From assembly GCA_963791315.1 (NCBI GenBank), contig CAWBRQ010000003.1, forward strand, positions 86,339 through 150,338: a DNA stretch of 64,000 nucleotides. Direction: 5' to 3'. This stretch comes from an uncultured beta proteobacterium (lineage in GTDB: Bacteria; Pseudomonadota; Gammaproteobacteria; Burkholderiales; Burkholderiaceae_F). Positions 1 to 56,147 of this stretch are shown one piece after another (the stretch's first letter is position 1; the number at the start of each line of letters is the position of its first letter). The notes under the pieces are model-generated. The model was not told where the DNA came from and did no database searches. It was given only the letters and a program-made list of their open reading frames with translations. The translations under genes and the position numbers were made by a program.

Positions 1-244
1 GTGGCTGATGCTGCTCGGGCGTGGCGCTTTCTGCGCCTGCGCGTGCCGACAACGTTGCATGGCGGCGCCGCCGATACCGATGGCCATCCGGCAGATACGT
101 GTCGAGCTGAAGATCGTTCCAGCTTTCGGTAAAGCTCGCCCAGTCGGTCAAGACGCCGCAGTCGCCCAGCAGCGGGCACATATCGGCGCCCGCAACGAAC
201 ACGAATCCGTCTCGATCGACGCGCTCGTGCAGCGCGCTCGTCAT
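1..244 (-). CDS. 2OG-Fe dioxygenase family protein (PF10014-like); N-terminal part only, as the gene runs off the left edge
   Basis: My own minus-strand translation from the ATG at 244-242 gives MTSALHERVDRDGFVFVAGADMCPLLGDCGVLTDWASFTESWNDLQLDTYLPDGHRYRRRRHA..., the typical N-terminal pattern of this family. There is an ATGA start/stop overlap with the upstream MFS gene. It is absent from the ORF track because it is truncated by the window edge. Confidence 0.55.
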   Translation of the reverse strand, partial: MTSALHERVDRDGFVFVAGADMCPLLGDCGVLTDWASFTESWNDLQLDTYLPDGHRYRRRRHATLSARAGAESATPEQHQP

Positions 245-1477
245 GTGCGTACCCGAGGCGGTTGCCGTGGGGGACGTACCAAGATCGCCAGCAGTGCGAT
301 CGCGCTGAACACTGCGCCGGCGATGAAAGTTTGCGGGGCACCCAACTGATCCCACAGCAGGCCCGCGAGTGCACTTGCTATCAGCAATGCAATGCCGCTG
401 ACAAGATTGAAAAATCCGAAGGCCGTGCCGCGCAAGTCAACGGGAGCGGCGTCGGCGACCATTGTCGCCAGCAGCCCTTGTGTAATGCCCATGTGCAAAC
501 CCCACAGCGAAACACCGAGCCATACCCACGTCCACTCGTTGCTGTATGCGAGCACGACGTCGGCGCCGATCAGCACTGCAAGGCCTAACGCCAGTAGCCG
601 CGCGTGGGTAACACTGTCCGACAGCCGCCCGAACGGATACGCCGAAAGCGAATAGACCAAGTTCATGCCGATCAGCACCAGGGGCACCAGCGCGATCGGC
701 AATCCGCCTTGCGCTGCTCGCAGCACGAGAAACGCCTCGCTGAAGCGCGCCAGCGTGAACACTGCGCCGATCGATACCACCCACCAATACGCAGGCGACA
801 ATTTGCGCAGGCTCGCACGCTGGATCGGATTGGTCGAACGTACCGTAGCCTCGCGCTCGGGTTCGCGTACGCCGAAGACAAGCAATACAACGGCAAGAAC
901 CGCGGGAATCACGGCGACCCAGAATACGGCGCGAAAATCGTTCGCCCATAGCAGCATCAATCCGAGCGCGAGCAAGGGTCCGATAAAGGCGCCGACCGTG
1001 TCGAGTGATTGCCGCAGTCCGAAAGCCGCGCCCCGTATTTCGCTTGGAGCAATGTCGGCTACCAGCGCATCGCGCGGCGCACCGCGTATGCCCTTGGCGA
1101 TGCGATCGATAAAGCGCGCGGTGAACACCATGCCCGCGGTCGATGCGATGGCGAACAGCGGCTTTGACAAGGCGGCCAGCGTGTAACCGATCACGGCTAG
1201 CGATTTGCGCTTGCGCCAGTAGTCGGACAGCACACCTGAGAACACCTTGACGATTAATGCGGTCGCCTCGGCAACGCCCTCGATCAATCCGACTACCAGA
1301 CGCGCTGGCACCTAGCGTCGTGACCAGGAACACCGGCAGCAGGCTGTGGATCATCTCGGACGAGATGTCCATCAGCAGGCTGACAAAGCCGAGTGTCCAG
1401 ATCGCCGCAGGCAAGCGGGATTTTTTCGTCACGTGCGTTGGTAAGTCGCGATCACCGATGGCGAAATTTAGACGCAA
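241..1477 (-). pseudogene. MFS transporter, frameshifted near 1300-1308
   Basis: The N-terminal 58 codons (..LGFVSLLMDISSEMIHSLLPVFLVTTLGAS) lie in the frame of ORF 437..1477. The rest (..VVGLIEGVAEATALIVKVFSGVLSDYWRKRK.., multi-TM) lies in the frame of ORF 241..1311. Removing one T in GCG-T-CTG-GTA restores a continuous MFS sequence. Confidence 0.75.
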
Positions 1478-1480
1478 ATA

Positions 1481-1523: not shown

Positions 1524-2379
1524 CTACCTGCGCCGTGTGCGACTCACTCCGAGCAGTGTCAGCAGCCCCAGCAAATTCAGCCAACCAAGTGCGCCCGCGC
1601 CTGCGTTTAACGGCGCGTTTGCTGACGAGGTCGGCGCAGTCGAACCGCCGGCCCCGGTTGCAGTGCCCTGCAGGGTTATATCGCGTGCCGGCACGTTGCC
1701 GACAAAGGTGACGCGCCAGGTGGCGGTGCTAGCTCCGGCGGTCGGTTGGAACGAACTCAAAGCCTATCGCGCAGCTTGCGCCCGGTTGTATGACTCCGCC
1801 ATTCACGCACACGGTCTGGCCCGCGGCGACAGCTAGCGCTTCTAAAATTCGGCGACCTGTCCGGTGCTGGCATTTATCGCTGGATTTGCAAGCGTGATGG
1901 CTGTGCCAGCAGCGTTCGTTAAAACAACCGCGATCGGCGCACTAGTGGCACCCACGGCTGTGCTGGGAAATGTGACCGCACTTGGGGCCGCAGTCGGTGT
2001 CGGTAACGGAGCAAACGGTGGGGGTGCCGGCGGCGTGACTGCGACAACGAGGTGCGCCGCGACGTCGGACGTTTTCTGCGCTGACCATGGGGCGTTCTGA
2101 AACACGGCCATCACTTGGCCGGCGTTGCTGTTGATAGCGGCTTGAATGGCTGCGCGGATCGTCGCCTCACTTGCGCCAGGGAAGCGAATGTCTCGAAACG
2201 TCCCGGCAAAGCCGTGGCAGTCCTGGCAGCTTGCGTCCGCTGACTCTCTCCATGTAGGCAGTCGCGCCGTTAGCCGCGTTTCCGACCTGCGCTAACGCGC
2301 TCGTCGTGCCGCCGGCAGCGATGGCCAACATGGCATACAGCAATGTGCGCAAGCTCAACAACTTTTGACGAGTCAGCAT
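1524..2379 (-). pseudogene. Exported c-type-cytochrome-like protein with a beta-rich domain and a C-terminal hydrophobic anchor; split over at least 3 frames
   Basis: ORF 2167..2379 gives a signal peptide plus GNAANGATAY. A haem motif CQDCHG (about 2211-2228) appears only after a frame change near 2232-2250. ORF 1842..2114 gives a P-rich linker plus TFPSTAVGATSAPIAVVLTNAAGTAITL. My translation of a third frame gives LEALAVAAGQTVCVNGGVIQPGASCAIGFEFVPT. ORF 1524..1760 ends in GWLNLLGLLTLLGVSRTRRR. Confidence 0.5.
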
Positions 2380-2488
2380 AGGAGGGCAGAAACCGTAATC
2401 GGGTAGATGGCCAGTCTATCGACGCTGCAAGACGCTTACCGTCGTGCGAACGGCTTAGCGCCTCCCCCACAAATCTGGAATTCACCCG

Positions 2489-6804: not shown

Positions 6805-7734
6805 TGCCGGCTTTGACGCCGCTCCACCAGCGCTCGAACGGTTCGCGCTTCGGAATGCCCGCGCGGCCGCCGAATCGCGTGCACTTCATAGCTGCCACTG
6901 CGGTTGCAAACTCAATCGCTGCGGGCAGCTCCTTGCCCTCCGCCAGCGCGAGGGCAAACGCACCATGCCACGTGTCACCGGCCGCTAGGGTATCGACCGC
7001 TTTCACGGCTGGCGATGGCGCGCTTGACAATGCCTTCGCCGTCGAACCACATCACGCCCGCTGCGCCGAGCGTCACGCCGCAGGCGATGTTGCGGCCTCC
7101 GAACAACTTCGGCAGCGCATGCTGCGGTTCGCCGGTCTGCAAGTTGTGCAGCATTGATTGCGACAGGAATGGATGCGTGGCGAGCCGCGCGGTCTCGCGC
7201 ACTTGCTGCGGATCTCCGGCATCGCCGTCGAACACGCTCGGCTTGCCCGCCATTGCAGCGGCATCGAACAGCCGCTGCGCACCGGCCGGCCAGCGCGTGT
7301 CGGCCAGCACCGCATCGGCGTCGGCCACGCGCTCGACCGGCAGCCAAGAAGCGTCGGGCGGATACCCCTGCGGCTGCACGGAGACGACCAATCGCTCGCC
7401 GCGCGCATCGATCAGGATGGTGGCGATCTTGGTGCGAAAGCCGGAAAGACGCAGCAGCGTCGAAACGTCGACGCCTTCATGCTTCAGAAGCGCGATGACC
7501 TGGTCGCCGGTCTCGTCGTCACCGACGCGTCCCCAGTAGACTTGCACGACCGCCGAGTCGCTGCACCGTGACGGCAGCGTTGGCGCCCATGCCGCCGCCG
7601 GTCTCGACGAAGTCCGTCGCGGTGATCTTCACCGACGGCAGCTTGACTTCGTCGACCAGAAAAATCTGATCGATCGTCGCCGAACCACCGACGCAGATAA
7701 CGCACGGCCGGCGTGCACCGTTCGACATGGCCAT
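6791..7734 (-). pseudogene. PfkB-family carbohydrate kinase (ribokinase-like) in three frames
   Basis: The N-terminus is ORF 7519..7734 (CVGGSATIDQIF..ETGGGMGANAAV), the middle is ORF 6975..7547, and the C-terminus is ORF 6791..7030 (DTLAAGDTWHGAFALALAEG, the PfkB signature). Frame changes fall near 7535 and 7000. Confidence 0.75.
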
Positions 7735-7744
7735 CAGTGTCGGA

Positions 7745-9790
7745 TCAGCCGCTAGCCGCGGGCTGCTCGTTTCGCTTGCGCCGCCGCAGCTGCAGAACGA
7801 TCACGGCGGCCAGCAACGCGATGCCGATTGCGTCTAGCCAGGCGCGGGGATAAATGATCAACAGGCCAGCAATCGTCAGCATTACCTGTTCGACGCGCGT
7901 GGTCTTGGTAATGAGCCAACCCTCCGCTGCTCCAGCGAGCGCGGCCAATGCGATCACTGCAAGGCGGTGATCCACGCCACGTCCCACCAGCTTCCGCCGG
8001 GTGGCAGCGCAAGCAGCAGGCCGACGCCGATCGGATCGAGCACGAACACAAAGGGCACAACGAATGCGGGCAGCGTGTACTTCCACGCCTGCAACGTTGT
8101 CTTGTACGGATCGCCGCCGGTGATCGCGGCAGCAGCAAATGGAGACAGCGCGGTGGGCGGCGACACTTCGGACAACACCGCGTAGTAGAAGATGAACATG
8201 TGTGCGGCGAAGTCTGGCACGCCAAGCTTGATCAGCGCCGGAGCAGCGACCACCGCACAGATGATGTAGCTTGCAGTCACGGGTACCGCCAGGCCGACGA
8301 CCCAGACGATCAATGCGGTGTAGATGGCGGTCAGCAGCAGGCTGCCGCCCGCGTACGAAACAATGATGTCGGCAAAGCGCAGTCCGAGCCCGGTTAACGT
8401 CACGACACCCACAATGATGCCGGCCGCAGCGCAGGTGGCAGCTACGCTCAACATTCCGATCGAACCGGCGGCGAGCGCCTGCATCAGCTTCGAATGCCGC
8501 AGTGTTTCGCGCACCCAACCCGTTGGTCTGCGCACGAAAAGCGAGAGGTCGAGCAACGCGCAATCGCGGTTCAGGAAACTGATCAGCACTGCCACTATCG
8601 TCGCCCAGAACACTGAAGCGATCGGCGAAAAGCCGAGCAGCAGGAACACGACAATCGCAACCAGCGATATGAAGTGAAACCCCATCGTCTTCGTCAGCTG
8701 CCACACCGTTGCACTCGTCTCGACGCGAACCTGCACCATCGCGTGCTTGCGTGCATCGATCTCGACCATGAACAACAACGACAGGTAGTACAGGCAGGTC
8801 GGAATGACCGCCATCTTGATTACTTCGAGATACGAGATCTTGAGAAACTCGGAAATCAGAAACGCAGCAGCGCCGAGCACGGGCGGCGACAGAATCGCGC
8901 CGAGCCCGCCCGCGGCAAGCAATCCGCCGGCAGCATTTTTTTCGTAGCCCGCCTTGGCGAGCATCGGATATGCGACCGTGCCCAACGTTACCGTCGTCGC
9001 GACGCCGGACCCGGAGGGTCCACCCGAGCAGAAACGAAGCGGCGGTCACGGCACGGCCGGCCCCGGTCGCCTTGCGACCGAACGCGGCAAGCGAAAAATC
9101 AATAAAGAATTGGCCCGCATTCGAGAACTGCAATACCGCTCCGAAGATCGTGAACAAGATGATCAGCGACGACGAGACATCGATCGGAGTCCCGAAAATG
9201 CCTTCGAGCGTCATGTACATCGTGCCAACCAGCCGATCGACGTCATAGCCGCGATGTGTCCATGGTGCGGGCAGGTAGGGACCGACCATCGCGTAGACGA
9301 CAAAGAGCACGCAGATGAACGGCATGATCCAGCCGGTGGAACGCCGTGCCGCTTCCAGCACGAGTACGGTCAGCGCGACACCCATGATGATGTCGAGTGT
9401 GTTCGGTGCGGTGCTGCGATCCAGAAAGTCGTCGCCGCCCATTAGGGCGTAAACGCTGGTCGCGACGCCCACCAACGCGCAGATCAGGTCGATCCAGCTG
9501 AAGCGATGGCGCAGGCGCCGCACGGCGGGAAACAGCAGGAACACCAGAAACAGCATGAACGCCACGTGCACATAGCGCAGTGTCGTCGTGGTGACGATGC
9601 CGTACGCGGCGTACAGGTGATACAAACTCATCGCCACCGCAACGGCGAAGAGAAAAGTGCCCCACGCACCCGCGAACTTGTGGTGGGCCCCTTCCTCTAC
9701 TGCGATGAATTCCTCGGCCTGGAGCCGTTGCTCGTCGGTGACGATCGGCACAGGGATCGCCTGCGCTGATCGCACCGTCGGTTCAGCCAT
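7745..9790 (-). pseudogene. TRAP transporter fused permease (TAXI-associated 4TM/12TM type) with two frame changes
   Basis: The ends of the 681-codon ORF look like membrane protein, but its middle third is Arg-rich nonsense. The genuine middle (GTVAYPMLAKAGYEKNAAGG... to ...GGSWWDVAWITAL) is ORF 7954..8985 in another frame. The junctions are near 9023 (a GGG run) and near 7965. Confidence 0.8.
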
Positions 9791-11943: not shown

Positions 11944-12783
11944 TCATCGGCGGCCGCCTCCCTTGACCGCACCGACCGTCAGCCCCTTCACGATATGGCG
12001 CTGCGCGAGCAGTCCGAGCAAGATCACCGGGGCCATTGCGAGCATCGCGCCCGCGGCGAGCCGCGCCCACTGCGTCTGCTCGACCGAAATGAAGTTGAAC
12101 ATCGCTACTGTCACCGGTCGCACCCGGTTGCCCGCGAGCACCACCGCAAACAGAAACTCGTTCCATGCATTCAGAAACACAAAGATGGTCGTCACTGCGA
12201 TTCCACCCCGTACTTGGGGCAGGATCACGTGCCAAAGTGCGCGCAATCTTCCGGCGCGGTCGAGCAGCGCCGCTTCTTCCATTTCTGGTGGCACGTCTTC
12301 GAAATACGACACCATCAGCCACACCGCAAACGGCAGCGAGAATGTCAAATAGATTCCGATCATGCCGCCATAGGTATCGAGCGCGCCTACCTTCTGCAGG
12401 ATAAGGTAGTACGGAATGATCAGCCCGACCGGCGGCAGCATTTGCGTGGCCAGCACATAGAACCCGCCAGCGCGCTTGGCGGGCAGTGCCAGTCGTGCCA
12501 AGGCATACGCGGCGGGCACCGCGAACAACATCGTCAGCACCGTCGCGCCGCCGGCGACAATCACGCTCGACACTAGATTCGGAAGAATGCTGCTGGCGCC
12601 GAACAGCACCTCACGATAGTTGGAGAGCGTAGGTTCAAAAAACACGAGCGGCGGATACGCCAGCACATCGCGCTCGGTCTTGAACGACGTCAGCAGCGCC
12701 CACAGCACCGGAATCACCCAGACGGACAGCAGCAGCGCCGCAATCAACGTCAATCCGATGGTGTGCCAGCGCCGGCTGCTCAT
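11944..12783 (-). CDS. Carbohydrate ABC transporter permease (MalG/UgpE-like)
   Basis: 279 aa with 6 TM segments and an EAA-like loop (EEAALLDRAGRLRALWHVILP). Confidence 0.85.
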   Translation of the reverse strand: MSSRRWHTIGLTLIAALLLSVWVIPVLWALLTSFKTERDVLAYPPLVFFEPTLSNYREVLFGASSILPNLVSSVIVAGGATVLTMLFAVPAAYALARLALPAKRAGGFYVLATQMLPPVGLIIPYYLILQKVGALDTYGGMIGIYLTFSLPFAVWLMVSYFEDVPPEMEEAALLDRAGRLRALWHVILPQVRGGIAVTTIFVFLNAWNEFLFAVVLAGNRVRPVTVAMFNFISVEQTQWARLAAGAMLAMAPVILLGLLAQRHIVKGLTVGAVKGGGRR

Positions 12784-13668
12784 CGCGCGCGCCGCAGCCG
12801 GAACAGCATGAACGAGATGGTCATCGTCATTGCCAGCAGCACCATCGCCAGCGCTGCGCCATAGCCGAGATTCAATTCGGTAAACGAGGTGCGATACGCG
12901 TACAGATTCAGGATCTCAGTCGCGGTGCCGGGGCCGCCGCCGGTGGCAGCAAAGATCGCGGCGAACGCTGACAACGCTGTCATCAACCGCAGGATGATGA
13001 CGATCACGATCGCGGGGCGTATCAGCGGCAACGTGATGTAGACGAACCGCTTCCACGCACCGGCGCGATCGATGCGCGCGGCCTCGAAGACGTCGGGCGG
13101 CAATGATGCGATGCTGGCAAGAATGACCAGGAATGCAAACGGTGTCCATTGCCACGTATGCATCGCGATTACCGAGATCAGCGCCAGTTGCGGATCGCCC
13201 AGCCAGTTGTGACTGCCTAGACCCGAGTGCGCGTGTCGCGACGTCGACGAGCCCGACATCGGGAGCCAGTACCAGCGTGCGCCAGAACAGTCCAACGACC
13301 ACCGGCGCCAAAACGATCGGCAGTATCGCGGCGACGCGCAGTGCGGCGTGTCCGCGCGGGATCCGCATCACCAGCAGCGCAAGCGCAAGGCCGATCGCGA
13401 CCTGCAGAACTACCGTCGCCGCCGTGTAGATGACCGTCAGTGTCAGCGAACTCCAGAAGCGCGGATCGCTCGCCATCTTGGTGTAGTTGTCGATACCGGC
13501 AAAACCCGAGAGCCAGGGCATCGAAAGATCGACCCGCTGCACGCTGGTCCACGCCAGATACACCAGCGGTGTCGTGGTCGTCAGAATCAGCAGCAGCAGC
13601 GCCGGCAGAAACAGCACCAACGCGAAGCGCCGCTCCTGCTGCGCCAGCGTGCGAACGGAGGCAGCCAT
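12780..13668 (-). pseudogene. Carbohydrate ABC transporter permease (MalF/UgpA-like), frameshifted
   Basis: The N-terminal half is ORF 12916..13668 (good to ..GLVDVATRALG). The C-terminal half is ORF 12780..13295 (WLGDPQLALISVIAMHTWQWTPF..FEAARIDRAGAWKRFVYITLP). The frame change is near 13215-13290. Confidence 0.75.
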
Positions 13669-13730
13669 TGAATGCTAGGAAGGTTCGCAGCGCAGCGCCC
13701 GGCGGCCGATGCGACACCGGGCGCCGTTCA

Positions 13731-15161: not shown

Positions 15162-16704
15162 TCACTTGCTTAATGCTTCGCGATCGACTGGATCGTGCGG
15201 CTCGTCACGCGCGCTGCGTTCTCGTATCGCGGCAAACGGGCTGCAGCCTGGTGCATCGCCGGCGCCTTCTGCCTGCTGCAGCAGATATTCGGGAAACGAA
15301 CCGCCGGCGTCGGCGCAGCCAAGATCGAACAGGCGCTTGACTACATCCGGATGTTGTTGCGCGAGATTCGGTGCGTCGGGAATTGGGCGTGGTGAGTCGT
15401 GCAAGAAAGCGCCGCGGCCGTTGATTTTTGCGTTGAACCACCAGTGGTCATCGATCACCGTCATTGCGCTGCCCCAGCCGATCGTGACATGGTCGCGGAT
15501 CGCTAGCGCCATCTGCAAAGGCGGTATCCCAGAATGACACGCCGTCGATCGGCGCCGGCGGTGTGATTCCAGCGGCATCGAGCATCGTCGCGGTGATGTC
15601 GTGGTGCTGCACGAAAGCGTTGCAGGCAGTGCCGGCGCCGACCTTTTGCGGGTGGCGCACCAGCAACGGCAGCTCGTAACTCTCGGGATCGGATGGATAG
15701 CCGCGTTTACCGATGTAGCCGCGACGTTCCCACAAGCTGTGGCCATGATCGGACGTCACGATTACCAGCGCCTGATCTAGCACACCGCACGCACGCAGCT
15801 GTGCAATCAAGTGGCCGAACCAGCGATCGCACATCTGAACCAGGCCGGCGTAGTTGGCGCGCGTGCGCGTCACCAGATCTTCCGGCAGCCATGGCATTTC
15901 GGCATACGGGGAGATGACTTGCTCGCGGCCGTCGCCGTTGTCGTAGTGGCGCCGATAGTGTTCGGGCACGAACCATGGCTCGTGCGGATCGAACGATTCG
16001 ACGGTCAGAAACATGCGCTTCGCATCGACGTTCTGCTCGACCCAGCGCGCTGCTTCCTGCATCACCTGCGCGTTGAACCACTGTTCTTCGCGTACGCGCT
16101 CGCGCATGTTCAGCAAGATTCGACTCGAGAACCATGCAGCGCCAAAGCCCGGTTGCTCCAGCCCGGTCGCCTTGCCGCGCAGCTCCTGCAACTCGCGCGG
16201 CACCCAGTAGTCGATCTCCTCCTGCGTCGGCCACGGTCCGCTGCGCGCGGCATCGGCTTCCTGCCCGCGAATGAACGACCATTGATGAAAGCCCCGCCAG
16301 AAGTTTTTCGACGGTTTGAACTGGTGATACAGATCGGAAATCAGTCCGGTGCGAAAGCCGTTGATCTCGCAGATCTCGGCCATCGTGTGCTGGTTCTCCG
16401 GAATCGGACCCCAGCCCGGCGCGATGCCGACAAAGTCACCCTTGATATGACGAAAGTCTCCGTTGTGAAACGGATAGGTGCGCAAGCCCGTGTAAAGCGT
16501 GCGGCGCGCGCAAAGCGTGGGCAGCGCTTCCGGATACGCCCGATCGAAGCGCACCGACTCAGCAGCGAACGCATCGAGATTCGGCGTTTCGATCGAACCC
16601 CATGCGGCCGGCGCTTGATAACAGCCGAGCGCATCGCGCCGCAAGGTGTCGAAGATCACCAGGATGATGTGACGAACTTCTGGTTTGGGTTTGCCTGCCG
16701 CCAT
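15162..16704 (-). pseudogene. Sulfatase-like hydrolase/transferase (alkaline phosphatase superfamily), frameshifted near 15530
   Basis: The start is the ATG at 16704 (MAAGKPKPEVRHIILVIFDTLRRDALGCY; the position of the usual Cys/Ser nucleophile is Thr in DTLR). The C-terminal about 120 codons continue in the frame of ORF 15162..15746 (IRDHVTIGWGSAMTVIDDHWWFNAKINGRGAFLHD...). The upstream 143 codons of ORF 15448..17133 are Arg-rich and not credible. Confidence 0.7.
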
Positions 16705-16820
16705 GTGCCTTGTATCCGACCGCGTCCTAGCTACCGTCGCCGGATTATGCCGGTGCCACGTCGGACTCACCCACAGCGGCAATTGATCGTGAAGATCACG
16801 ATGGAAGCGCAGCTGACTCC

Positions 16821-18231: not shown

Positions 18232-19222
18232 CTACTGCAGCTCGACGCCTGCCTTCTTCACGAGCTTCGCGTACTTAGCCATCTCATCACGGAAAAACTT
18301 GGCGGCAAATTCCGGCGTGCTGACATTGATCGTGTTGCCCTGCTTGGCCATCGTTTCACGCACTTCCGGGTTCGCAAAGGCCGTGACGAAAGCAGCGTTG
18401 ATTCGCTTGACGTCGGCCGCAGACATCTTGGCCGGCCCGATCACCGCGAACCATCCTTCGACCAGATAACCCGGCATGCCTTGTTCGGTCATCGTCGGGA
18501 TGTCGGGCGCGGCGGCGAGACGCGTCGCAGTGCCGGTGCCGATCGCGCGCAGCGCACCGCTCTTCAAGTGCTGCTGGATCGACGGCAGCGACAGTGTGCC
18601 CATTTCAACCTGCCCGCCGATCAGGTCGGTCAGCATCGGCCCGACGCCCTTGTACGGCACGTGCGTGGCCTTGACACCCGCCTCGTCCATGAACATCTCG
18701 GCCGCCAGATGCAGGATCGTTCCGTTGCCGGATGATCCGTAGTTGTATGCCACCAGGCTTCGCCTTCAGCAGCGCGATCAGCTCCTTGGCATCCTTCGCG
18801 GGCACCTTCGGATTGACGACGAACACGATCGGCGTCGAGCCGATGACCGCGATCGGCGTGATGTCGTTGATCGGATCGAACGGCACCGACTTGTACACGC
18901 TCGGATAGATCACATGATTGTTGGAAACGATGCTCAGCGTGGTGCCGTCCGGTGGCGACTTGATCATCGCCGACGTACCGACGATGCCACCGGCGCCAGG
19001 CTGGTTCTCGACCACAACTGACGCTCCAAGCGCCGTCGACAGCGCCGGCGAGGCAGCGCGCGTAATGGTGTCGACGCCCGACGCAGTGGCGACCGGCAGG
19101 ATGAAACGGACCACCTTGGTTTGGCCCGACGCCATGTTCGACCACAGCGTCGATGCTCCGAGTGCCGATGTCCGATACCAAAGCCGTCATCTAGCGTGCG
19201 GCGCTTCGATGCGTGTGTTCAT
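18232..19222 (-). pseudogene. Bug/TctC-family tripartite tricarboxylate transporter substrate-binding protein; in-frame TGA plus a frameshift
   Basis: My translation of the 5' end is MNTRIEAPHAR-TGA-RLWYRTSALGASTLWSNMASGQTKVVRFILPV. The stop (about 19186-19188) lies in the leader region. The body is ORF 18605..19135 (VVENQPGAGGIVG), and the C-terminus is ORF 18232..18753 (YNYGSSGNGTILHLAAEMF). The frame change is near 18745. Confidence 0.7.
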
Positions 19223-37463: not shown

Positions 37464-37484
37464 TGTTTCTTCAAACGGCGGGCC

Positions 37485-40592: not shown

Positions 40593-41966
40593 ATGGCTCG
40601 TAACACTCAAGTGGCCGCCGACCACGACGCGCCGCCGATCACGCAGATTCTGGCGCGCTTCGTTGCGGAGCATCCGTCGCGCGGGTGGACCGACGCGGTG
40701 GACAAAGAGGCGCACCGCACGCTGCTCAACTGGATCGGCTGCGCGGTCGGTGCCGCGAAGCATGAAGCCGCAGACGCGGCTCTGGCCGCGGTGCGGATGT
40801 TGCAGCCGGCGGCGCAAGCGACTGTGCTCGGCCGCGCCGAACGTGTGGACATTGCGAGCGCCGCACTTGTCAATGGCATCACTTCGCACACATTCGACTT
40901 CGACGACACGCACCTAAAAACAATCATTCATCCGGCCGGCCCGGTCGCCTCGGCGGCGGTCGCGCTCGCCGAGCTGATCGGCGCATCGGGGCGCGAGCTG
41001 ATCGATTCGCTGGTGCTGGGTATCGACGTTGCGTGCCGGATCGGCAACACGATGTATCCGGATCATTACGACCGCGGTTGGCACATCACGGGTTCGACCG
41101 GCATGTTGGGAGCGGCTGCCGCCAGCGCGCGATTGTTGAAGCTCGATCAGCAACGGACTGCGATGGCGCTTGGCATCGCCGCGTCTCAACCAATCGGCGT
41201 ACGCGAACAGTTCGGCACGATGACGAAGCCGTTTCACCCCGGCGGCGCGGCGCGAGCAGGGTTGATGGCTGCGTTGCTTGCGAAGAACGGATTCACCGCG
41301 AGCGCAAAGGCGATCGAAGCACCGCGAGGTTTGGTGCAGGTCGTGTCGGACAAGCGCAGTTGGAGTGAAGTCACCGACGAACTGGGTGAGCGCTTCGAGA
41401 TATCGTTCAACACCTACAAGCCATTTGCGTGCGGCATCGTCATTCACCCGAGCATTGACGCGTGCGTGCAGTTGCGCGAGCGTGGCGTGCGGGCCGAGCA
41501 AGTCGAGCGTATCGAGCTCAAGGTGCACTCGCTGGTGCTGGAGCTGACCGGCAAAAAAGAGCCGGCGGATGGACTGCAAGGCAAGTTCAGCGTGTATCAC
41601 GGTTGCGCGGTTGGGCTTATTTTTGGACGCGCAGGCGAGCACGAGTTCTCGGATGCGGTCGTCAACCGGCCGGATGTCGTCGAGCTACGGCGCAAGATTG
41701 TGGCGACCGTCGATCAGAACATCGACGAAGCATCGGTCGACGTGACGGCGATACTCGGCGGCGCCAGGCGCGAACACGTCTTTGTCGAGCACGCAATCGG
41801 CTCGCTGCAGCGCCCGATGACCGATGCACAGCTCGAAGCGAAGTTCACGGAGCTGAGCGCTCCTGTCATCGGCGCCGACAAGACGAAAGCGCTGATCGCG
41901 GCGGCATGGAAGATCGGAGATGCCGCTGATGTCCGTGGAATGACCGCGATCGCACGGCCGCAGTGA
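40593..41966 (+). CDS. MmgE/PrpD family protein (2-methylcitrate dehydratase-like)
   Basis: 457 aa, with LLNWIGCAVGA, HTFDFDDTH, HPAGPV and WHITGSTGMLGAAAA as PrpD-family hallmarks. Confidence 0.85.
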   Translation: MARNTQVAADHDAPPITQILARFVAEHPSRGWTDAVDKEAHRTLLNWIGCAVGAAKHEAADAALAAVRMLQPAAQATVLGRAERVDIASAALVNGITSHTFDFDDTHLKTIIHPAGPVASAAVALAELIGASGRELIDSLVLGIDVACRIGNTMYPDHYDRGWHITGSTGMLGAAAASARLLKLDQQRTAMALGIAASQPIGVREQFGTMTKPFHPGGAARAGLMAALLAKNGFTASAKAIEAPRGLVQVVSDKRSWSEVTDELGERFEISFNTYKPFACGIVIHPSIDACVQLRERGVRAEQVERIELKVHSLVLELTGKKEPADGLQGKFSVYHGCAVGLIFGRAGEHEFSDAVVNRPDVVELRRKIVATVDQNIDEASVDVTAILGGARREHVFVEHAIGSLQRPMTDAQLEAKFTELSAPVIGADKTKALIAAAWKIGDAADVRGMTAIARPQ

Positions 41967-42944
41967 ACACCCAGCGTCCGCGCATCGTAGTGCTCGATGA
42001 CTACGAGCGGGCGCTGCGACGTCTGGCGGACTGGTCCGAGATTGACCGTCGGGCCGACGTGGACATCTATCACGATCCACTACGCGGCGATACGCTGTAC
42101 GCCGCAATAGCCGATGCTGACGTGATCGTGCTGGTACGTGATCGCACGCCGTTGCGCGCTCAGTTGATTGAGCGTCTGCCGAAGTTGCGCTACGTGATCT
42201 TTACCGGCGCTCGCAACAATGCGCTCGACGCAGCGGCGTTAGCCGCGCGCGGCATCCCGGTCAGCCATACCGAATGGGGCCCGTCGAAGGAAAGCACGTG
42301 CGAGCTGACATGGACGCTGATTCTTGCTGCGAGCAAGCGACTCGAAGCAAAGTTGGCGGCAATGCGCACTGGCGGTTGGCGTGACGATCAACCGCTGCCG
42401 GGTGTGCTGGGCGGTGAGCGACTGGGTCTGATCGGACTCGGTGAGATCGGTGGTCGGGTTGCGCGCGTCGCCCAAGCTTTCGGCATGCAGGTCGTTGCGT
42501 GGAGTCCGCGCATGACGCCCGAGCGCGCCGCTGAAAAGGGTGCGACGGCGGTGTCGATCGAAGAATTGCTTTCGACATCGAGAGTCGTGAGTCTGCATCT
42601 GGTGCCGACCGATCAGACGCGTGGACTGTTAAATCCGGCGCGGCTGGCGCTTGATGCGCGATGATGCAATTCTGGTCAACACGTCGCGCTCGGCGTTGAT
42701 CGATATGGCGTCGCTGCTGGCGGCTTTGGGCGCAGGTCGGCCCGCGATCGCGGCGCTCGATGTATACGACGACGAGCCACTGGCAGCCGATCATCCGCTG
42801 CGCTCGCTGAAGAACGTTGTGCTGACTCCGCACATTGGCTTCGTGTCGCAGCCAGTATTCGAGGCGTTCGCCCGCGGTGTCAATGAATGCCTGATGGCGT
42901 GGTTGCGTGGTGAGCCGATCGTGCGCCAGTTGAAAATCGACTGA
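41963..42944 (+). pseudogene. D-isomer-specific 2-hydroxyacid dehydrogenase, frameshifted near 42652
   Basis: ORF 41963..42664 holds the catalytic and NAD domains (GLIGLGEIGGRVARVAQAFGMQV). It continues in ORF 42651..42944 ([13 protein letters not shown]...LDVYDDEPL...LTPHIGF). Deleting one G in CTT-G-ATG restores [16 protein letters not shown]. The GTGA start overlaps the prpD-like stop. Confidence 0.75.
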
Positions 42945-45011: not shown

Positions 45012-45974
45012 ATGAGCGCTTCCGCGCGCAGCACATCTTCTCCATGGCCAGAGCTGCCTCTTGCTGCATGGAGCGACACGTACCAGACCCTGCACTTATG
45101 GCTGCAAATTGTCGGCAAGGTGCGGCTGGCAGCGACTCCTTGGATTAATCATTCATGGCACGCCACGCTGTATGTGACGGCCAGAGGATTGACGACTTCA
45201 CCGATCACCATCGGCACGCGGACCTTACAGATCGACTTCGATTTCATCGATCACCGGTTGATGGTTCAAACGAGCGATGGTCGTACCGACGGATTTGCGC
45301 TCGTGCCGATGTCTGTCGCGACGTTTTACGCGCGTTTGATGAAGCAGCTCGAAAAGCTCGATATCAATCTGAGCATTTATCCGCTTCCGAACGAAATCGA
45401 GAATCCGATTCGCTTCGATCACGATGAAGTGCACCACGCCTACGATGCCGAATACGCCAATCGATTCTGGCGCGCGCTGGTGCAGGCCGACCGCGTTTTC
45501 AAGCAATTTCGCGCCCGATTCATAGGCAAGGGGAGTCCGGTGCATTTGTTCTGGGGCGCACCGGACCTGGCGGTCACGCGCTTCTCGGGGCGGCGCGCGC
45601 CCGTGCACCCGGGTGGCATTCCCCATCTACCCGATTGGGTGACACGCGAAGCCTATTCGCACGAAGTGAGCAGCTGCGGCTTCTGGCCCGGCGGCGGCGC
45701 GATCGCGTATCCGGCGTTTTATTCGTACGCTTATCCGGAGCCGCCGGATTTCACACAGGCGCGGATAAATCCCGACGCCGCGTTCTACAGCATCGATCTG
45801 CACGAATTCATTCTGCCGTACGACGCCGTGCGCCAATCGACATCGCCGGATGCGACCCTGCTCGAATTTTTGCAGACGACGTATGAAGCGGCAGCGAATT
45901 TGGCCAAATGGGATCGCGCGTCACTCGAGCGCGATGACACCGCAATTCCAGAAGGTGCTACGCGAGAAACTTAA
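45012..45974 (+). CDS. DUF5996 family protein
   Basis: WPELPLAAWSDTYQTLHLWLQIVGKVRLAATPWINHSWHATLYVTARGLTTSPI is the conserved N-terminal block. The start is ambiguous (ATG at 44979 or 45012). The first about 230 codons of ORF 44289..45974 are antisense to chaA and are rejected. Confidence 0.7.
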   Translation: MSASARSTSSPWPELPLAAWSDTYQTLHLWLQIVGKVRLAATPWINHSWHATLYVTARGLTTSPITIGTRTLQIDFDFIDHRLMVQTSDGRTDGFALVPMSVATFYARLMKQLEKLDINLSIYPLPNEIENPIRFDHDEVHHAYDAEYANRFWRALVQADRVFKQFRARFIGKGSPVHLFWGAPDLAVTRFSGRRAPVHPGGIPHLPDWVTREAYSHEVSSCGFWPGGGAIAYPAFYSYAYPEPPDFTQARINPDAAFYSIDLHEFILPYDAVRQSTSPDATLLEFLQTTYEAAANLAKWDRASLERDDTAIPEGATRET

Positions 45975-48900
45975 GCGTTGCCGGTACCTGGCGGCGCAGC
46001 AGTGCATTGCGGGCCGTCCATTCCGCCTCGGGCTGCGAGTTGCTCGAGAAAGCGCGCTTCGCCGGCGACCAGCAAGGCAATCGGCACGCCGTCTCGATAG
46101 AGCACGCGATTGCCGGTGAGTGCGGGTAATCGCGCACCGGGACTCAGAATGCCCACCAGGTTTAGCGGATCGGCACCGCTCAGGCTGAGCAAAGCACCGG
46201 ACGGCTCGCGCCGTCTGACATCGCGCAGTAGTCCGATCGCTTCGGGCGCAGCGAACTGCTCGCCAGAAGGTCCCGCGACGAAACGCCCGCCGCGAATTTC
46301 GCCGCGCGCTTCGAGCCGTCGATAACAACGCAGCAGATCGCGCCACGGAGGCAGCCATTGTGCTTCGCGTGCGATCAGCCGCCAGAACACCACGCCGTAA
46401 CGGCGTAGCAGGGTGCGTGCGACGTGCTCGACGACGTCGGCGCCTTCCGGAGCACGCCGTTTTCGCACCAGCGCCCAGCGCCCGGCGTCTTCGATGCCGA
46501 ACAGCGCCGTGCGACGCAGACGCTTGTGTCCGTCGAACGTCCGACGGCGATCGGATGGCACGAGCAATGCTCGCAAACCACCGAAGCTATCGGAATTGAT
46601 CAGCCCCTGCGCAACGAGCTCGGCGAGGGCTTGCTCGACCTGCGTGCGCAACAGCGTCGTGCCTTCGACGATTTCTTCGAAAAACGAAGCGCCGTGCGCC
46701 GTGATGAACTCGGCGACCTGCTGTGCGTTCGACGTCAGCGTTACGTCATTACCGTCCGGCGCAAGCGTGGCCCAGATGGCGAGGTTGCGCCGTGATGCAA
46801 GCGCAATCGGCGTCGTGCGTACAGGACTCGGTGCGCGTTCGCCGCTTGAGTTGAGCGGAGCGATGCGCGTCCACACGACTCTGCCTGCGCGGCTCAGCTC
46901 GTCCAGCCACGCCGGATCGTATTCATTGACGCGCGCTGGAAGGATCTCGGTCTCCCAAGCAGCGGCGGGTGCTTCGAAACCTTCGAGCTGCGACACGATG
47001 TTGGCCACCGCATCCGGGCCTTCGACTCCGCGCTTCCGGTGCGACTCGTTGCCATTCGAACAAGAAGCGCATGAAGTCGCGCGCTTCGACCGGCTCGATT
47101 TCGCGGCGCAGCCGATTCACGGTGTACCGGTGAATGCGCGCAAGCAGCCGCCGCTCGCACCATTCGGTCTCCTTGCTGTCGGGACTGAACTGTCCACGCA
47201 TCACCGAGCCTTCGGCTTCGAGTCGTACCAATGTGGTTTCGACTTCGCCAGCAGCCAGGCCGAGCGGTGCGGCGAGCGCGCTGACGGTTACGGGCCCCAG
47301 CCCTTGCAGGCGATCGCGCAGAATTTCGACCAGCGCGTCGTCGCGGGTCCACGCCTTCTGATATTGAATCGGCGCTGCAATCGCAGGCGTGCGCTCGGCC
47401 AGCGGGAACAGTGCGTCGAATTCGGGCAAGCGCTCAGCGGCCACGAAGGCAGCGCTTCCCGTTAGCGCAATTGAAGTCGCACGCTTTGTAGCCACGAGCT
47501 CCCCGAACAGTGCCGGCCATTCCGGCTGCGCACTGATCTCCGCCTGGCTCAAAAAACCCAAGCTCATCAGCGCATCGTGCAATTCGTCGGCGCCCCGCGG
47601 CTCGGGCCACACTTCCTCGCGCACTCTGCGGATCGCATCGGCGTCGAGCTTGCCGAGATCGGCGGCAGTTTCGGGATCGATCCAGCGACGCGCCATCACC
47701 GCCTGCGTGCGGCGCTCCTCCAGCGGTGCATCGTCAAGGTACGCATACGGCCTCGCAGAAAGAATCTCGAGCGCAAGCGGCGAAGGTTCGGTCAGATCGC
47801 GCGCGATCACCTTGATGTCGCCACGCTCCATTGCGCGCAGCACACGCTCGAGGCCGTCGATGTCCATCGCTTCGTGCAGGCAATCGTCGATCGTCTGTCG
47901 CACCAGAGGGTGATCGGGTATTTCGCGGTCGCCGACGATGTTCTCGCCGCACGCCACCTGATCGGGAATATGGCTGCAAGCAAATCTTCGGACGCCATGC
48001 GTTGCAGCTGCGGTGCGACTTTATGGCCGCCGCGAAAGCGCAGCAACGCGAGCGCCACCACGGCGTTCCAGCGCCAGCGCGTGCCGAACATCGGCGCGTC
48101 CAGCAGCGCCTGTATCAGCAACGGCCGCACGGTCTTTGCAGACAGATAGCGCGCCACGTCTTCAAGCGGAAAACTGTGGCTGCTCGAAAGCGATAACACG
48201 ATCGCATCCTCGGTCGCCGCCGCCTGCAACTCGAAATCGAATTTGCGACAGAAGCGCTTGCGCAGCGCCAGGCCCCACGCGCGATTGATCCGGCTGCCGA
48301 ACGGCGCATGCACGATCAGCTGCATGCCGCCCGACTCGTCGAAGAATCTTTCGAGAGCGACGGTGCGAATGGTTGGCAGCTGACCCAACGCGGCCTTGGC
48401 TGCCGCAAGATAATCGACGATCTGCTCTGCCGCTGCTAGCGCGATGCCGACTTCATCGGTGAGCCACGCGATTGCCGCGTCGCGCCCGCCGCTATCGAGC
48501 CGCTCTGCAATCGTGTCGCGCAATCTGGACAACGACTCCGAAAACTCGTTGGTGCGTCCTGGCGCCTCGCCTAACCAGAATGGAATGGTGGGCGGTTGTC
48601 CTTTTGCATCCTCGACGCGCACGGTGCCGCGCTCGACGCGGATGATCCGGTAGGACGTGTTGCCGAGCTGGAACACATCGCCCGCCAGCGACTCGACCGC
48701 AAAATCCTCGTTCACGGTGCCGACGACCTGCGACTGCGGTTCGAGCATCACCGTGTAGTCGGCCGTATCAGGAATCGTTCCGCCTGACGTCACTGCCGAC
48801 AGCGCTGCACCGCGCCGCCCGCGCAAAACGCCATTGACCGCATCGCGATGCAGATGTGCGCTGCGTCGCCCGCGCTGCGTATGAAAACCTTCGGCCAGCA

Positions 48901-50258
48901 TCAGCACAATTTCGTTGAACTCATGCACGCGTGAGATCACGGAACGGATAGGCGCGCTGATAAAGCGTGAAGAGCTCATCCTCGCGCCATTCCTGCGACC
49001 CGACTTCGGCCACGATCTGCTGCGCCAGAACGTCGAGCGGCTTCGCAGGCACGGCGATGTTGTCCAGCTCGCCACGCCGCGTCGAGTCCAGCAGCGCGGC
49101 GCAGTCGCACAGTTCGTCGCGCGACAGCGGAAAGAGCCGGCCCTTCGATATGCCGCCGACCGCGTGACCGGCGCGGCCGACGCGCTGCAGGAACGCTGCG
49201 ATCGAACGCGTCGAGCCGATTTGGCACACCAGATCGACATCGCCGATATCGATTCCCAGCTCGAGCGACGCCGTCGCGACCAATGCGCGCAGTTCACCGC
49301 GCTTCAGTCGCTGCTCGGCATTCAACCGCTTGTCACGTGACAGGCTGCCGTGATGCGCCGTGACGTTTTCATCGCCCAGCCGTTCGGACAGATGGCGCGC
49401 CGCGCGCTCGGCAAGCCGCCGTGTATTCACGAAGATCAACGTTGTCCGATGCTCGCGCACCAACTCGGCGAGCCGGTCGTACACCTGTTGCCATACATCA
49501 CCGGACATCACCGCTTCGAGCGGAGCCGACGGCAGCTCGATCGCAAGATCGCGGCGGCGCACGTGCCCGGTATCGACGATCGTGCAGCGTGCGCTGTCGC
49601 CGACTAGAAATTTTGCGATTTCACTGATCGGCTTCTGCGTGGCGGATAGGCCGATACGGACGAAATCTCGTCCTGCAAGCGCCTGCAGCCGTTCGAGTGA
49701 CAACGCCAGATGCGCGCCGCGCTTGTTCGGCGCTAGCGCGTGGATCTCATCGACGATCACCGTGCGCGTCGTCGCCAGCATCTTGCGACCCGACTTGCTG
49801 GTCAGCAGGATGTACAGCGATTCGGGCGTCGTGACGACAATATGCGGCGGCCGTCGCCGCATGCTCGCGCGATCCGCTTGCGGCGTGTCACCGGTGCGCA
49901 CCATCGTGCGAATGTCGATATCGGGCAAGCCGAGCCGCTCAAGTTCGGCGCGAATGCCGGCGATCGGAACTTCAAGGTTCTTCTGAATATCGTTCGATAG
50001 CGCTTTCAGCGGAGAGACGTAGACGACGTGGGTTTCATCCGTCAATCCGTGTTCGATACCTTCGCGCACCAAGGTGTCGATCGCCGCGAGAAAAGCGGCC
50101 AACGTCTTACCCGATCCGGTCGGCGCGGCGACCAGCGCGTGTTGACCCGCCTTGATCGCCGGCCAGGCGTCGGCCTGTGCGCCGGTCGGCGCCGCAAAGG
50201 CTGAGGTGAACCACGCCTGGACAGCGGGATGAAATAGTTCGAGGACGGGAGTTTGCAT
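45971..50258 (-). pseudogene. lhr: Lhr-type large ATP-dependent DEAD/DEAH helicase, split over four ORFs
   Basis: The start is the ATG at 50258 ([33 protein letters not shown], and helicase motif [10 protein letters not shown]). It continues in ORFs 47807..49297, 46923..47957 and 45971..47008. The junctions are near 48930, 47955 and 47020. The total is about 1429 codons, consistent with Lhr length. Confidence 0.8.
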
Positions 50259-50361
50259 CGGTAATGTCGCGCCAGTCGCAGACGGCGGCGACCGCATTTG
50301 CACTAACCACAGCTCGCGAGAAGCGGAAGTATATTGGGGTTCGCCCCTGCCGGAGAGAACG

Positions 50362-52213: not shown

Positions 52214-52301
52214 CTCCGGAAACTCAGCGTCCCTAAGCCCCGCCTAGGCATCCACCTTGCTTTAGCCTGTTGCCACGCCACTCGGCGTGCAATTTATTCC
52301 A

Positions 52302-53840
52302 ATGATCCGAGCTATCTGGCTTGCAGCTATTGCATTCCTACTCGCTGCGACGGCGCCGGCTGCGCACGCGTTTGGCTTCGCGGATGTCGACCGGCGAGCG
52401 CGCGAGCTGGCGAATCGGCCCTACACCAAGTCGGCGGTTGTGCTGCCGAAGCAACTAAAGGACCTGACCTACGACCAGACACGCGACATCCGATTCGATC
52501 CGTCTCAATCGTTATGGCGCGCGCAAAGGTTGCCGTTCGAGATCCAGTTCTTTCATTTGGGCGGCATCTTCGACCAGCCGGTGCGGATTTACGAGGTCGT
52601 CGGTAATGAAGTCAACGAGATCCCCTTCGACCCGACGCATTCGATTACGGCAAGAACAAGATCGATCGGTCGCAGCTCCGCAAACTGGGGTTCGCCGGCT
52701 TTCGCATTCATTTTCCGCTCAACGTCGTGCCGAGTGCCCCGCGGTACAAGGACGAGCTCGTGTCGTTTCTCGGCGCCAGTTACTTTCGTGCCTTGGGCAA
52801 GGGCCAGCGCTACGGCACCTCGGCACGCGGTCTGGCGATCGACACGGCCGAGCGCGGCGGCGAGGAATTTCCGCGCTTTGAGCAGTTCTGGATCGAGCGG
52901 CCCGCGCAGCGGAGCGCGCGAGCTCGTCATGTACGCGCTGCTCGACTCGCGTCGCGTGACCGGCGCCTATCGCTTCGTCGTTCGGCCCGGCGCAGACACG
53001 GTGACCGAGGTCCGCACGGCTGTACCTGCGCGAGCCGGTGGCGAAGCTCGCATCGCGCCGTTGACGTCGATGTTCTTCTTCGGCGAGAACCAGCGCGCAC
53101 CGTCCGAGGACTTCCGTCCGGAAGTGCACGATTCGGACGGACTTGCGATCCACTCGGCCAGTCCGGGGAATGGATCTGGCGGCCGCTGGTCAATCCACGT
53201 CGCCTGTTGGTGACTTCGTTTGCACTGACCGACCCGCGCGGCTTTGGGCTGATGCAGCGCGACCGGCAGTTCAGCTACGAAGATCTCGAAGCGCGCTACG
53301 AGTTGCGACCCAGCATCTGGGTCGAGCCCGCGCAAAGTGGGGCGCCGGACGCGTCGAACTGGTGCAGATTCCCACGCCGAATGAAACGAACGACAACATC
53401 GTCTCGTACTGGGTGCCGAATACGCTGCCGCCACCGGGCACGCCAATGATTTCTGCTACCGCATGCTCTGGCTGAAGGAGACCGATCGCCGCCCGCCGAT
53501 GTGGGTCGTGCAGACCCGCCGCGGGCAGGGTTATCAGCCGCAGCCTCTGCGTCAGGCAACAATTCGTCAGCCGATGACGTGTAAAATTCACGGTCGACTT
53601 CGATGGGCCCGCACTGCGCAAGCTGCCGGACGACGCACCGGTGCAGGCCGACTTGCCATCGGCAACGGTCAAGAGCACCGATCTCGTCATCTATCGCAAC
53701 GATGTGACCGGCGGCTGGCGCATGGTGCTGCAGGTGCGACGCACGACAAGGAAAAACCGATCGAAGTGCGTGCACTTTTTCGCAACGGCAAGGAAGTCAT
53801 GAGCGAGACATGGAACAACATCGTTCCGCTGAACCAATAG
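52302..53840 (+). pseudogene. opgG: Glucans biosynthesis protein G (OpgG/MdoG), heavily frameshifted (at least 6 frame changes)
   Basis: It has a signal peptide plus FGFADVDRRARELANRPY...LPFEIQFFHLG. The recognisable OpgG blocks then alternate between three frames: [90 protein letters not shown] and KPIEVRALF..SETW. Confidence 0.8.
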
Positions 53841-56147
53841 CCGGCGCGGCATTGGCCTCGCGTGGGCGGCCTGCCGAGGTTCCGCATTTGCCCGGCCTTG
53901 CCGGCCGCGGTGCCGTCATGTTGCGCACGCCAATGACGCCGACCCTGGGGACGTGTAGGGCCGGGTCATGGATGCTGCGCCGACTGTTGGCCTCGATCCG
54001 CGGTTGCCCGACATCAAGGGCCCGGCGCACGGTGCCGGGCGCCGTCGCCGCTTCGTGCTTTCTCACTGTTGTCTGTGCTGCCGGCACTTTATGCGACCTA
54101 TGTGCTTGACGGGCTGCTGCCCAAGTCACGGCAACGAGACCGTCGATCTCGCGATCACGGGGGCGGCCGCCTGCTCGTCGTGTTCGCGCTGTTGACGTGC
54201 TGGCTCGCGGCCGGGTTCTGGACTGCGATGCTGGGACTTTGTGCTCGCCTGCGGGCGGCGATCGGTACCTGATTTCGCGTTCGGCGAAGCTTCCGACGGC
54301 TATGTCGCCACGCGGCCCGCACTGCGATCGTGATGCCGATCTGCAACGAGGACGTGCAGCGCGTCTTCGCCGGTTTGCGCGCGACTTACGAGTCGGTGGC
54401 GCGCACCGATGCACTCGATCACTTCGACTTCTTTGTGCTGTCTGACACAGCAACCCGGACACCTGCGTCGCGGAGCTTGATTCCTGGCATGCGCTACGCG
54501 ACGAGCTCGACGCCGAGTCGCGCCTGTTTTACCGGACCGCCGCACGGCGCGTGAAGCGCAAGAGCGGCAACATCGACGACTTTTGCCGGCGCTGGGGCGC
54601 ACGCTACCGCTACATGGTCGTGCTCGATGCCGACAGTGTGATGACCGGCGATTGCCTGATCACGCTGGCACGTCTGATGGAGGCGCGGCCGGACGCCGGC
54701 ATCATCCAGACCGCGCCGCAGGTGGTCGGCGGGAATACGATCCATGCGCGCACGCAGCAGTTTGCCAATCAGGTGTATGGACCGGTGTTCACGGCCGGCC
54801 TGCACTACTGGCAGCTTGGTGAATCGCACTACTGGGGTCATAACGCGATCATCCGGCTCGAGCCGTTCATGAGGCACTGCGCGCTGGCGCCCGTGCCGGG
54901 TCGAGGCTCACTCTCCGGCGAAATTCTTTCGCACGACTTCGTCGAGGCGGCGCTGATGCGGCGTGCGGGCTATCGGCGTCTGGATCGCCTACGACGTCGA
55001 GGGCAGCTATGAGCAGACACCGCCGAATCTGCTGGACGAGGTCAAGCGCGACCGGCGCTGGTGCCATGGCAATCTGATGAATGCCAGGCTGATGTTCGTG
55101 CGCGGCCTGCATCCGGTTCATCGCACGGTGTTCTTCACCGGTGCGCTCGCCTATTTGTCGGCGCCGCTGTGGCTCGGCTTTCTCGTGCTGTCGACCTGGC
55201 TGCTGCTGCAGCACGTCACCGCCGATCCGCAGTACTTCGTGATGCCGCACCAGCTCTTTCCGCTCTGGCCGTCATGGCGCCCGGAGCATGCGTGGGCGCT
55301 ATTGGCGGCGGTTGCTTCGGTGCTGTTCGTACCCAAGATCCTGGCAGCGATGCTGGCGGCGCGTAAAGCAGCCTCCTATGGCGGGACCTTGCGCCTCGCA
55401 TTCAGCGTACTTGGCCGAAATGCTGATGAGCGCTTTGCTCGCGCCGGTGCGCATGCTGTTTCATTCGCAGTTCGTCGCCGCGGCCCTGCTCGGTTGGTCT
55501 ATCCAGTGGAAGTCGCCGGCGCGAGCCGACAAGTCGACGTCAGTCAAGCAGGCGCTGCGCCGGCATGGACTGCAAACGGTGATCGGACTGGGATGGATGG
55601 GGTTGGTCGCGTGGAAAGCACCCGACGTCTTGCCATGGATAGCGCTGGTTGCCGCAGGCTTGCTGTTGGCGATACCGATTTCCGTACTGACCAGCTCCTC
55701 GGGCTTCGGGCTGCTTATGCGCAGAGCCAAGCTTTTCATGACACCCGACGAAACACGGCCGCCGCGTGAAGTCGTTGCCACCGCACAATATGCACGCAAC
55801 GCCAGGGCGCTGCCGCGCTTCGCGGATGCGATCACGGACCCTGAGGTGTATCTGGCAGTGCGTAGCGCGGCGCGCGGTTCACGGTCGACGCTCGCCTCGG
55901 CACGGCGCACAGAGCGTGTCGAGCGGCGTTACAGGCGGGACCCGACGCGCTTAGCCTAAGCGAGCGCGTTGCTTTGCTGCACGACGGCGCAGCGCTGGAT
56001 GCCTTGCATCGCTCCGCCAGGGCTGCACCGATTCATTCATCGTGGTACTCAAGTTCCTCAACGCCGGATCGCGCAACGATCAGGGTGTTTGGTCGGCAGC
56101 CGAACGTGCGCAATGCGACCGTTGCTACGCTGGCGCGCGTGCGCTAG
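53810..56147 (+). pseudogene. opgH: Glucans biosynthesis glucosyltransferase H (OpgH/MdoH), heavily frameshifted (at least 6 frame changes)
   Basis: The GT2 blocks are scattered over three frames: [113 protein letters not shown] and the TM region. My translation of the last block, SERVALLHDGAALDALH, ends at the TAG at 56145-56147. Confidence 0.8.

Follow-up and report, generated by a model that had tools for sequence, protein, structure and literature searches.

The stretch of DNA analysed here, 64,000 nt from an uncultured beta proteobacterium (the window: G000:C3:86339-150338, where G000 is the assembly under study, GCA_963791315.1, and C3 its contig CAWBRQ010000003.1), contains many genes interrupted by frameshifts, among them the neighbouring genes opgG and opgH. 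From comparison with related genomes, these frameshifts are very probably insertion and deletion (indel) errors in the consensus of an error-prone metagenome-assembled genome (MAG), and not biological gene decay; in the organism itself the genes concerned are most likely whole and working. The events are spread over the whole genome, strike essential genes, consist of indels only and gather in patches that do not coincide with gene boundaries.

Results

G000 comprises 3.27 Mb in 15 contigs, with 61% GC, a marker-gene completeness of 81.6% and a contamination of 0.6%. Its high contiguity, set against its low marker completeness, was a first warning sign. The same mismatch was seen in genus-mates of G000 (20-30 contigs at 76-81% completeness); the genus also holds contiguous assemblies at 92-100% completeness and fragmented ones in 270-600 contigs. 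The main reference was G011, a 100% complete relative of 3.3 Mb (62% GC on its largest contig).

Frameshifts were called with our own protein-versus-DNA dynamic programme, which allows for frameshifts, using intact orthologues of relatives, mainly of G011, as queries. Plain tblastn merged closely spaced frameshifts into high-scoring segment pairs of low identity, and the frameshift-aware alignment was used instead. Orthologues in G000 were accepted at ≥72% identity and ≥70% coverage, and a frameshift was taken as high-confidence when identity was ≥60% in the 12 residues on each side of the event. This conservative flank rule was adopted because raw counts were inflated in two ways: reference open reading frames (ORFs) taken from stop to stop include a non-coding 5' part, in which events and apparent stops were counted, and some ORFs were spurious antisense ones.

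By this rule, 341 high-confidence frameshifts were found in 442 conserved orthologues covering 544 kb, or 17% of the genome: 0.63 events per kb, with 31% of the conserved genes broken. The combined sample spans ten G000 contigs, C1-C7, C11 and C12 among them. Its first part, built from ORFs in 601 kb of contig C1 of G011, gave 219 frameshifts in 307 genes (382 kb; 28% of genes hit); the second, for which the initial 20 kb of each of twenty further contigs of G011 were used, gave 122 frameshifts in 135 genes (162 kb; 36% of genes hit), which fall on seven contigs of G000. A reference-free check, ORF-length tiling, which is a blunt measure at 61% GC, likewise pointed to fragmentation throughout the genome, with a per-base mean ORF length of 353-445 aa on each of the 15 G000 contigs, compared with 489 aa in G011.

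Essential genes were identified with NCBIfam, frameshifts were counted inside the domain, and the amino acid identity to G011 was determined after frame correction. Frameshifts were present in the cell division and cell wall genes FtsZ (3 frameshifts; 95% identity), FtsA (2; 93%), MurC (10; 89%) and MraY (3; 93%), in SecA (1; 94%), AccC (1; 97%), PRPP synthetase, Prs (1; 94%), class II FBA (2; 95%), GAPDH (3; 93%), transketolase (17; 77%) and ProB (8; 81%). Among the alignments of these 11 genes, stop codons were found in that of ProB only. All genes tested in the dcw cluster carried frameshifts, while MreB, MetK and Prc proved intact when events lying 5' of the real start codon were left out of account. 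Such lesions in essential genes are impossible for a free-living bacterium. The protein sequences are preserved, and the frameshifted essential genes are therefore under normal constraint.

As a control, 12 dcw-cluster genes were analysed in five relatives. The fragmented assemblies G009 and G005 showed no events and the contiguous MAGs G008, G002 and G003 showed 2-3, whereas G000 showed 32. The orthologues of a CxxCH protein gene that is frameshifted in the window were also compared: four frameshifts were found in G008 and 13 in G027, at positions unlike the four of G000, and none in G024, G025 and G026. Independent frameshifts in the same gene in MAGs of different species indicate that the cause lies in the making of the assemblies and not in biology. 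The CxxCH frameshift patches of the two contiguous MAGs are located at G027:C7:29978-33999 (L087) and G008:C22:23799-27816 (L082).

The events are indels of 1 nt, sometimes of 2 nt, and about 73% of them are 1-nt insertions. No homopolymer enrichment was detected: the longest homopolymer within 8 nt of the events was distributed as at random coding positions. No dominant motif was found at the events either, only a weak excess of CAAG(C) (19% versus 10%). A methylation-like motif was considered as the cause and rejected, since this enrichment leaves the bulk of the events unexplained. True pseudogenisation normally yields nonsense and frameshift lesions in similar numbers. In G000 at most 11 candidate clean stops stood against about 314 frameshifts; the apparent stops were mostly located in untranslated 5' extensions of reference ORFs or in doubtful small ORFs.

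The density of events is uneven along the genome, and this unevenness is statistically real (dispersion chi-square of 1022 on 306 degrees of freedom, genome-wide). It is regional, not functional. Over a background of about 0.2-0.3 events per kb there are hot regions with about 2.5-5 per kb on contig C7, at 250-310 kb (dcw, pilB, proB), 340-346 kb (tkt, gap) and 440-450 kb; the C7 hot regions also take in a hybrid histidine kinase gene with 20 events. In the window two small patches are very dense, with more than 10 events per kb, at 52.6-54.5 kb and 34.5-35.0 kb. The hot patches disregard gene boundaries: one stops in the middle of opgH, and the C7 region of about 60 kb spans the whole dcw cluster. 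Elsewhere in the window the density of events is that of the genome background.

The larger patch of the window starts inside opgG and ends inside opgH (Table 1). The two genes together carry about 27-29 frameshifts, and zero stop codons were found in their approximately 1290 frame-corrected codons. After correction, the identities of OpgG and OpgH to G011 were within the range of other members of the genus (78-91% and 78-84%, respectively).

Private indels and substitutions of opgGH were determined from a six-genome nucleotide alignment. Seventeen of the 21 indels strictly private to G000 were located in 52600-54470, and four in the remaining 1.7 kb (p=0.0025); within opgH, the first 26% of its length holds 7 of 11 (p=0.01). 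Other lineages showed 1-4 private indels in the hot patch and 0-4 in either segment. Private substitutions in the patch were 62 for G000, compared with 58 for G011, 58 for G007 and 82 for G008. At third codon positions, the private substitutions of G000 amounted to 35%, the same as in the nearly unbroken G008, a comparison confounded by saturation and branch length.

Pairwise dN/dS of opgG and opgH for G000 was 0.08-0.16, with dS saturated near 1, so that a very recent relaxation could escape dN/dS alone. The ratio of OpgH dN between the indel-dense and the indel-poor part was about 1.2 in pairs with G000 and about 1.4 in other pairs. With dN not raised and dN/dS low, the indels of opgGH therefore show no trace of relaxed constraint; the number of private substitutions and the absence of stops are stronger arguments than dN/dS.

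The genes of the window were identified with Pfam and their domains were checked for splitting across frames. A preliminary description, made from the sequence of the window before any comparison, had listed a series of disrupted loci. By frameshift-aware alignment and Pfam all of these proved to be disrupted in the deposited sequence, as did at least one more, the gene of a family III CoA-transferase (Table 1).

Table 1. Frameshifted genes and the main hot patch of the window (strand as + or -; aa, amino acid)
Feature	Position in window	Strand	Lesions and identity
MFS transporter (MFS_1)	262..1429	-	one 1-nt insertion near 1300; 85% aa identity to G011
CxxCH (cytochrome-c-like) protein	1527..2415	-	four 1-nt insertions, near 2235, 1850, 1831 and 1743
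PfkB kinase	6821..7707	-	two 1-nt insertions, near 7542 and 7028
TAXI-TRAP fused permease	7745..9790	-	at least 2 frame changes, near 9020 and near 7960-7990
ABC permease (BPD_transp_1)	12783..13671	-	one 1-nt insertion near 13224; 92% aa identity to G011
Sulfatase-family gene	15165..16722	-	one 1-nt insertion near 15504; 92% aa identity
Bug/TctC receptor	18235..19215	-	1-nt insertion near 18748; second indel near 19169, in the leader
CoA-transferase family III	19256..20561	-	1-nt insertion near 19313; 90% aa identity; not in the preliminary list
Dienelactone hydrolase (DLH) cassette gene	33564..34462	+	split near 33860-33905
Pyr_excise pyrimidine-dimer glycosylase cassette	34555..35001	+	five frameshifts, near 34580, 34674, 34726, 34937 and 34974
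D-2-hydroxyacid dehydrogenase	41963..42944	+	one extra base near 42649
lhr, large helicase	45961..50264	-	four frameshifts, near 48929, 47961, 47027 and 46036
opgG (MdoG)	52258..53837	+	12-14 frameshifts, mostly deletions; 84% aa identity to G011 after correction, 0 stops
Consensus-indel hot patch	52600..54470	.	more than 10 events per kb; starts inside opgG, ends inside opgH
opgH (GT2 glucan glucosyltransferase)	53874..56144	+	15 frameshifts, 12 before 54460 and 3 after; 78% aa identity to G011 after frame correction, 0 stops

Outside opgGH, the frame-corrected genes also remained close to their relatives. The CxxCH protein showed 86% amino acid identity to the intact orthologue of G024, with zero stops. 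The glycosylase, whose cassette forms the small hot patch, showed 84% identity to the G008 orthologue, again with zero stops, and the Lhr helicase, in which Pfam identified the WH_Lhr and DEAD_assoc domains, 86% over 1437 aa. The 2-Hacid_dh_C profile of the dehydrogenase breaks at position 115/116, and its two parts lie in ORFs 41963-42664 and 42651-42944. The ORF at 33896-34462 of the DLH cassette carries only profile positions 70-215 of 217. In the CoA-transferase gene the insertion rewrites only the last 19 or so residues; the lesion escaped the preliminary description because the ORF stays long.

According to Pfam, the 681-aa frame of the TRAP permease carries DctM profile positions 3-101, ORF 7954-8985 carries positions 114-403, and DUF3394 is again in the first, 681-aa, frame. 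Since DctM is spread over two frames, the 681-aa ORF (7745-9790) owes its open frame to chance. At 61% GC it stays open by chance across two frameshifts, with its middle 350 residues out of frame, and an ORF caller would list it as an "intact" fused TRAP permease.

The Bug/TctC receptor showed 92% amino acid identity, and its mature part is, apart from the insertion there, perfectly colinear. In the leader (window 19150-19260) a TGA is present as codon 5 after the first ATG proximal to the ribosome binding site, in a stretch that has three extra nt relative to G011 and lies 50 nt from the further downstream indel. The extra nucleotides and the nearby indel mean that this TGA is not callable as a clean substitution; it may be genuine, an erroneous substitution or the joint result of two indels. 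The nonsense codon that the preliminary description had reported in this gene is present in the sequence.

Other quantitative statements of the preliminary description could be compared with these counts. Its "at least 12 corrections" in opgGH was an underestimate. The uneven distribution that it noted was reproduced, both genome-wide and in the clustering of the private indels of opgGH. The region 58472-63580, which it had singled out as clean, is free of frameshifts, an unremarkable outcome with a probability of 0.2-0.4 at the background of 0.2-0.3 per kb. As 31% of conserved genes are broken genome-wide, the 14 of about 60 loci (about 24%) that it had found disrupted represent the normal state of this genome.

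The DLH and glycosylase genes belong to an integron-type cassette array at 33620-37564, with at least seven attC-like sites (cores GCCTAAC ... GTTAGGC) near 33667-33704, 34453-34544, 34996-35076, 35568-35661, 36181-36274, 36828-36921 and 37482-37564. Between the sites lie small cassette ORFs for DLH, the Pyr_excise glycosylase, L-PSP/RidA, a lipocalin-like protein and SnoaL/DUF4440. The array is not present in the syntenic part of G011, and the same attC-like repeat occurs in long arrays of relatives (among others G002 C32 at 90-104 kb, G002 C36 at 63-72 kb and G028 C10 at 303-308 kb).

Discussion

G000 would be a highly contiguous MAG, whose source was most likely a set of noisy long reads of modest and uneven coverage, and in which consensus calling wrongly added or dropped single bases and occasionally two. 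The window would then consist of the ordinary background and two patches of poor consensus, 52.6-54.5 kb (opgGH) and 34.5-35.0 kb (gene cassette), and such patches would rest on very few reads. The opgGH patch is rich in deletions and the C7 hot regions are rich in insertions, a difference that would fit patches drawn from very few reads. The sequencing platform, and low local coverage as the cause of the patches, are what we infer from this picture.

Host-restricted decaying genomes, such as those of Mycobacterium leprae, Bordetella pertussis and Sodalis, keep their essential genes intact, accumulate nonsense codons, deletions and IS insertions besides frameshifts, and show raised dN/dS in dead genes. 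G000 resembles them in having many genes interrupted by frameshifts, unevenly over loci, but its essential genes are broken, nonsense codons are almost absent and dN/dS of opgGH is low. Some endosymbionts rescue apparently frameshifted yet conserved genes by slippage at poly-A tracts, a mechanism that depends on a long homopolymer where the frameshift lies; the genes of G000 are likewise frameshifted and conserved, but its events show no homopolymer enrichment. The best-known residual Nanopore error is the homopolymer deletion. Nanopore assemblies below about 40x coverage keep residual indels that cause frameshifts and fragmented gene calls (PMC9262707). At least one genus-level relative of G000 (L168) is an environmental MAG from Nanopore data only, whose project used Flye assembly followed by one Medaka round (PMC12313526). 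G000 is similar to such residual-indel long-read assemblies and MAGs (PMC9262707, with tests of the IDEEL type; PMC12313526) in its high contiguity with depressed marker completeness, in gene calls fragmented genome-wide, essential genes included, and in indels that far exceed substitutions; the amount of error follows the assembly and not gene function, and other contiguous MAGs of the genus are alike. It differs from the emphasis of PMC9262707 on homopolymer indels: the events here are mostly 1-nt insertions, not enriched in homopolymers, with very dense local patches. For this reason we do not commit ourselves to a platform.

Several points weigh against consensus error as the explanation. 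The individual indels were judged from the assembled sequence itself, and their positions are good only to a few nt because the closest available genomes belong to other species, at about 77% nucleotide identity to G000. The lack of homopolymer enrichment and the dominance of 1-nt insertions make it uncertain which platform was used and how the error profile arose. rpoB (4.1 kb, 1378 aa) and the 16S rRNA gene are intact, and the TGA in the Bug leader, at codon 5, is not explained away with certainty. A few of the events in accessory genes could be genuine, and with the present data these are indistinguishable from noise.

The preliminary description had been headed "genome decay or localised assembly error" and had favoured relaxed selection in a host- or niche-restricted lineage, acting on opgGH, transporters and cassettes. 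Frameshifts are indeed present and very unevenly spread, several lie in accessory uptake and envelope genes, many are outside homopolymers, and the Bug leader holds one possible nonsense codon. However, genes of cell division, cell wall synthesis, secretion and central metabolism are struck equally or harder, nearly a third of conserved genes are broken, and nonsense codons are almost lacking. opgGH shows no excess of private substitutions and a low dN/dS, the abrupt change of indel density inside opgH is not expected from neutral decay of an operon, the size and GC content of G000 match those of the intact G011, and in the CxxCH gene frameshifts have arisen independently in unrelated MAGs of the genus. 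Decay is on this evidence the least probable of the readings considered, with hardly any chance of being right. It had been put forward with the provision that it would not survive if frameshifts of the same density ran through the genome, essential genes included; they do, at the same or higher density, and it therefore fails. The indels outside homopolymers, which had been held to speak against sequencing noise, lose their force as well, the essential-gene events genome-wide being likewise not associated with homopolymers. What stands of the original heading is the hedge towards poor consensus.

A mixed origin, with errors as the background and true, older pseudogenes in the densest patches (opgGH and the glycosylase cassette), could account for the opgGH patch being denser than the large C7 hot region (more than 10 against 2.5-4 events per kb) and, rich in deletions where C7 is rich in insertions, different in kind. 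But the patch falls short of the whole operon, taking in no more than a part of opgG and the initial quarter of opgH; the corrected codons hold no stops, private substitutions in the patch are normal, and dN in the indel-dense part is not raised relative to the indel-poor part. About 27 neutral indels should, on general grounds, bring well over 100 extra substitutions and several stops. This reading is very improbable, and a slimmer chance still attaches to the proposal that opgGH and the glycosylase cassette were genuinely and recently inactivated in a lineage that has lost its need for osmoregulated periplasmic glucans, with assembly noise around them. A consensus collapsed from several co-occurring strains or species (chimeric polishing), instead of low coverage, deserves more weight, though it too is unlikely. 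The hot regions include conserved core loci open to cross-mapping (dcw, transketolase/GAPDH), error profiles differ among patches, and many species of the genus co-occur in metagenome catalogues. Mixtures should, however, mainly give mosaics of substitutions, and private substitutions in the opgGH patch are not elevated; the contamination of G000 is also low. Only reads would separate such a collapse from consensus error at low coverage.

The main value of consensus error as the explanation of these frameshifts is that of a warning. About a third of the conserved genes in MAGs of this kind appear broken by consensus errors, and a frame that is open by chance, like that of the 681-aa "TRAP permease", can pass as an intact gene. 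Several further MAGs of the genus that combine high contiguity with low completeness call for the same caution, probably G027 and G008 among them. It is unsafe to draw functional or evolutionary conclusions from any "pseudogenes", "knocked-out transporters" or "orphan remnants" of G000, and the problem is shared by any reading of the Bug receptor, of the TRAP and ABC uptake systems, of the frameshifted second sulfatase and of a possible gene remnant at 57333-57582 as inactivated in this organism.

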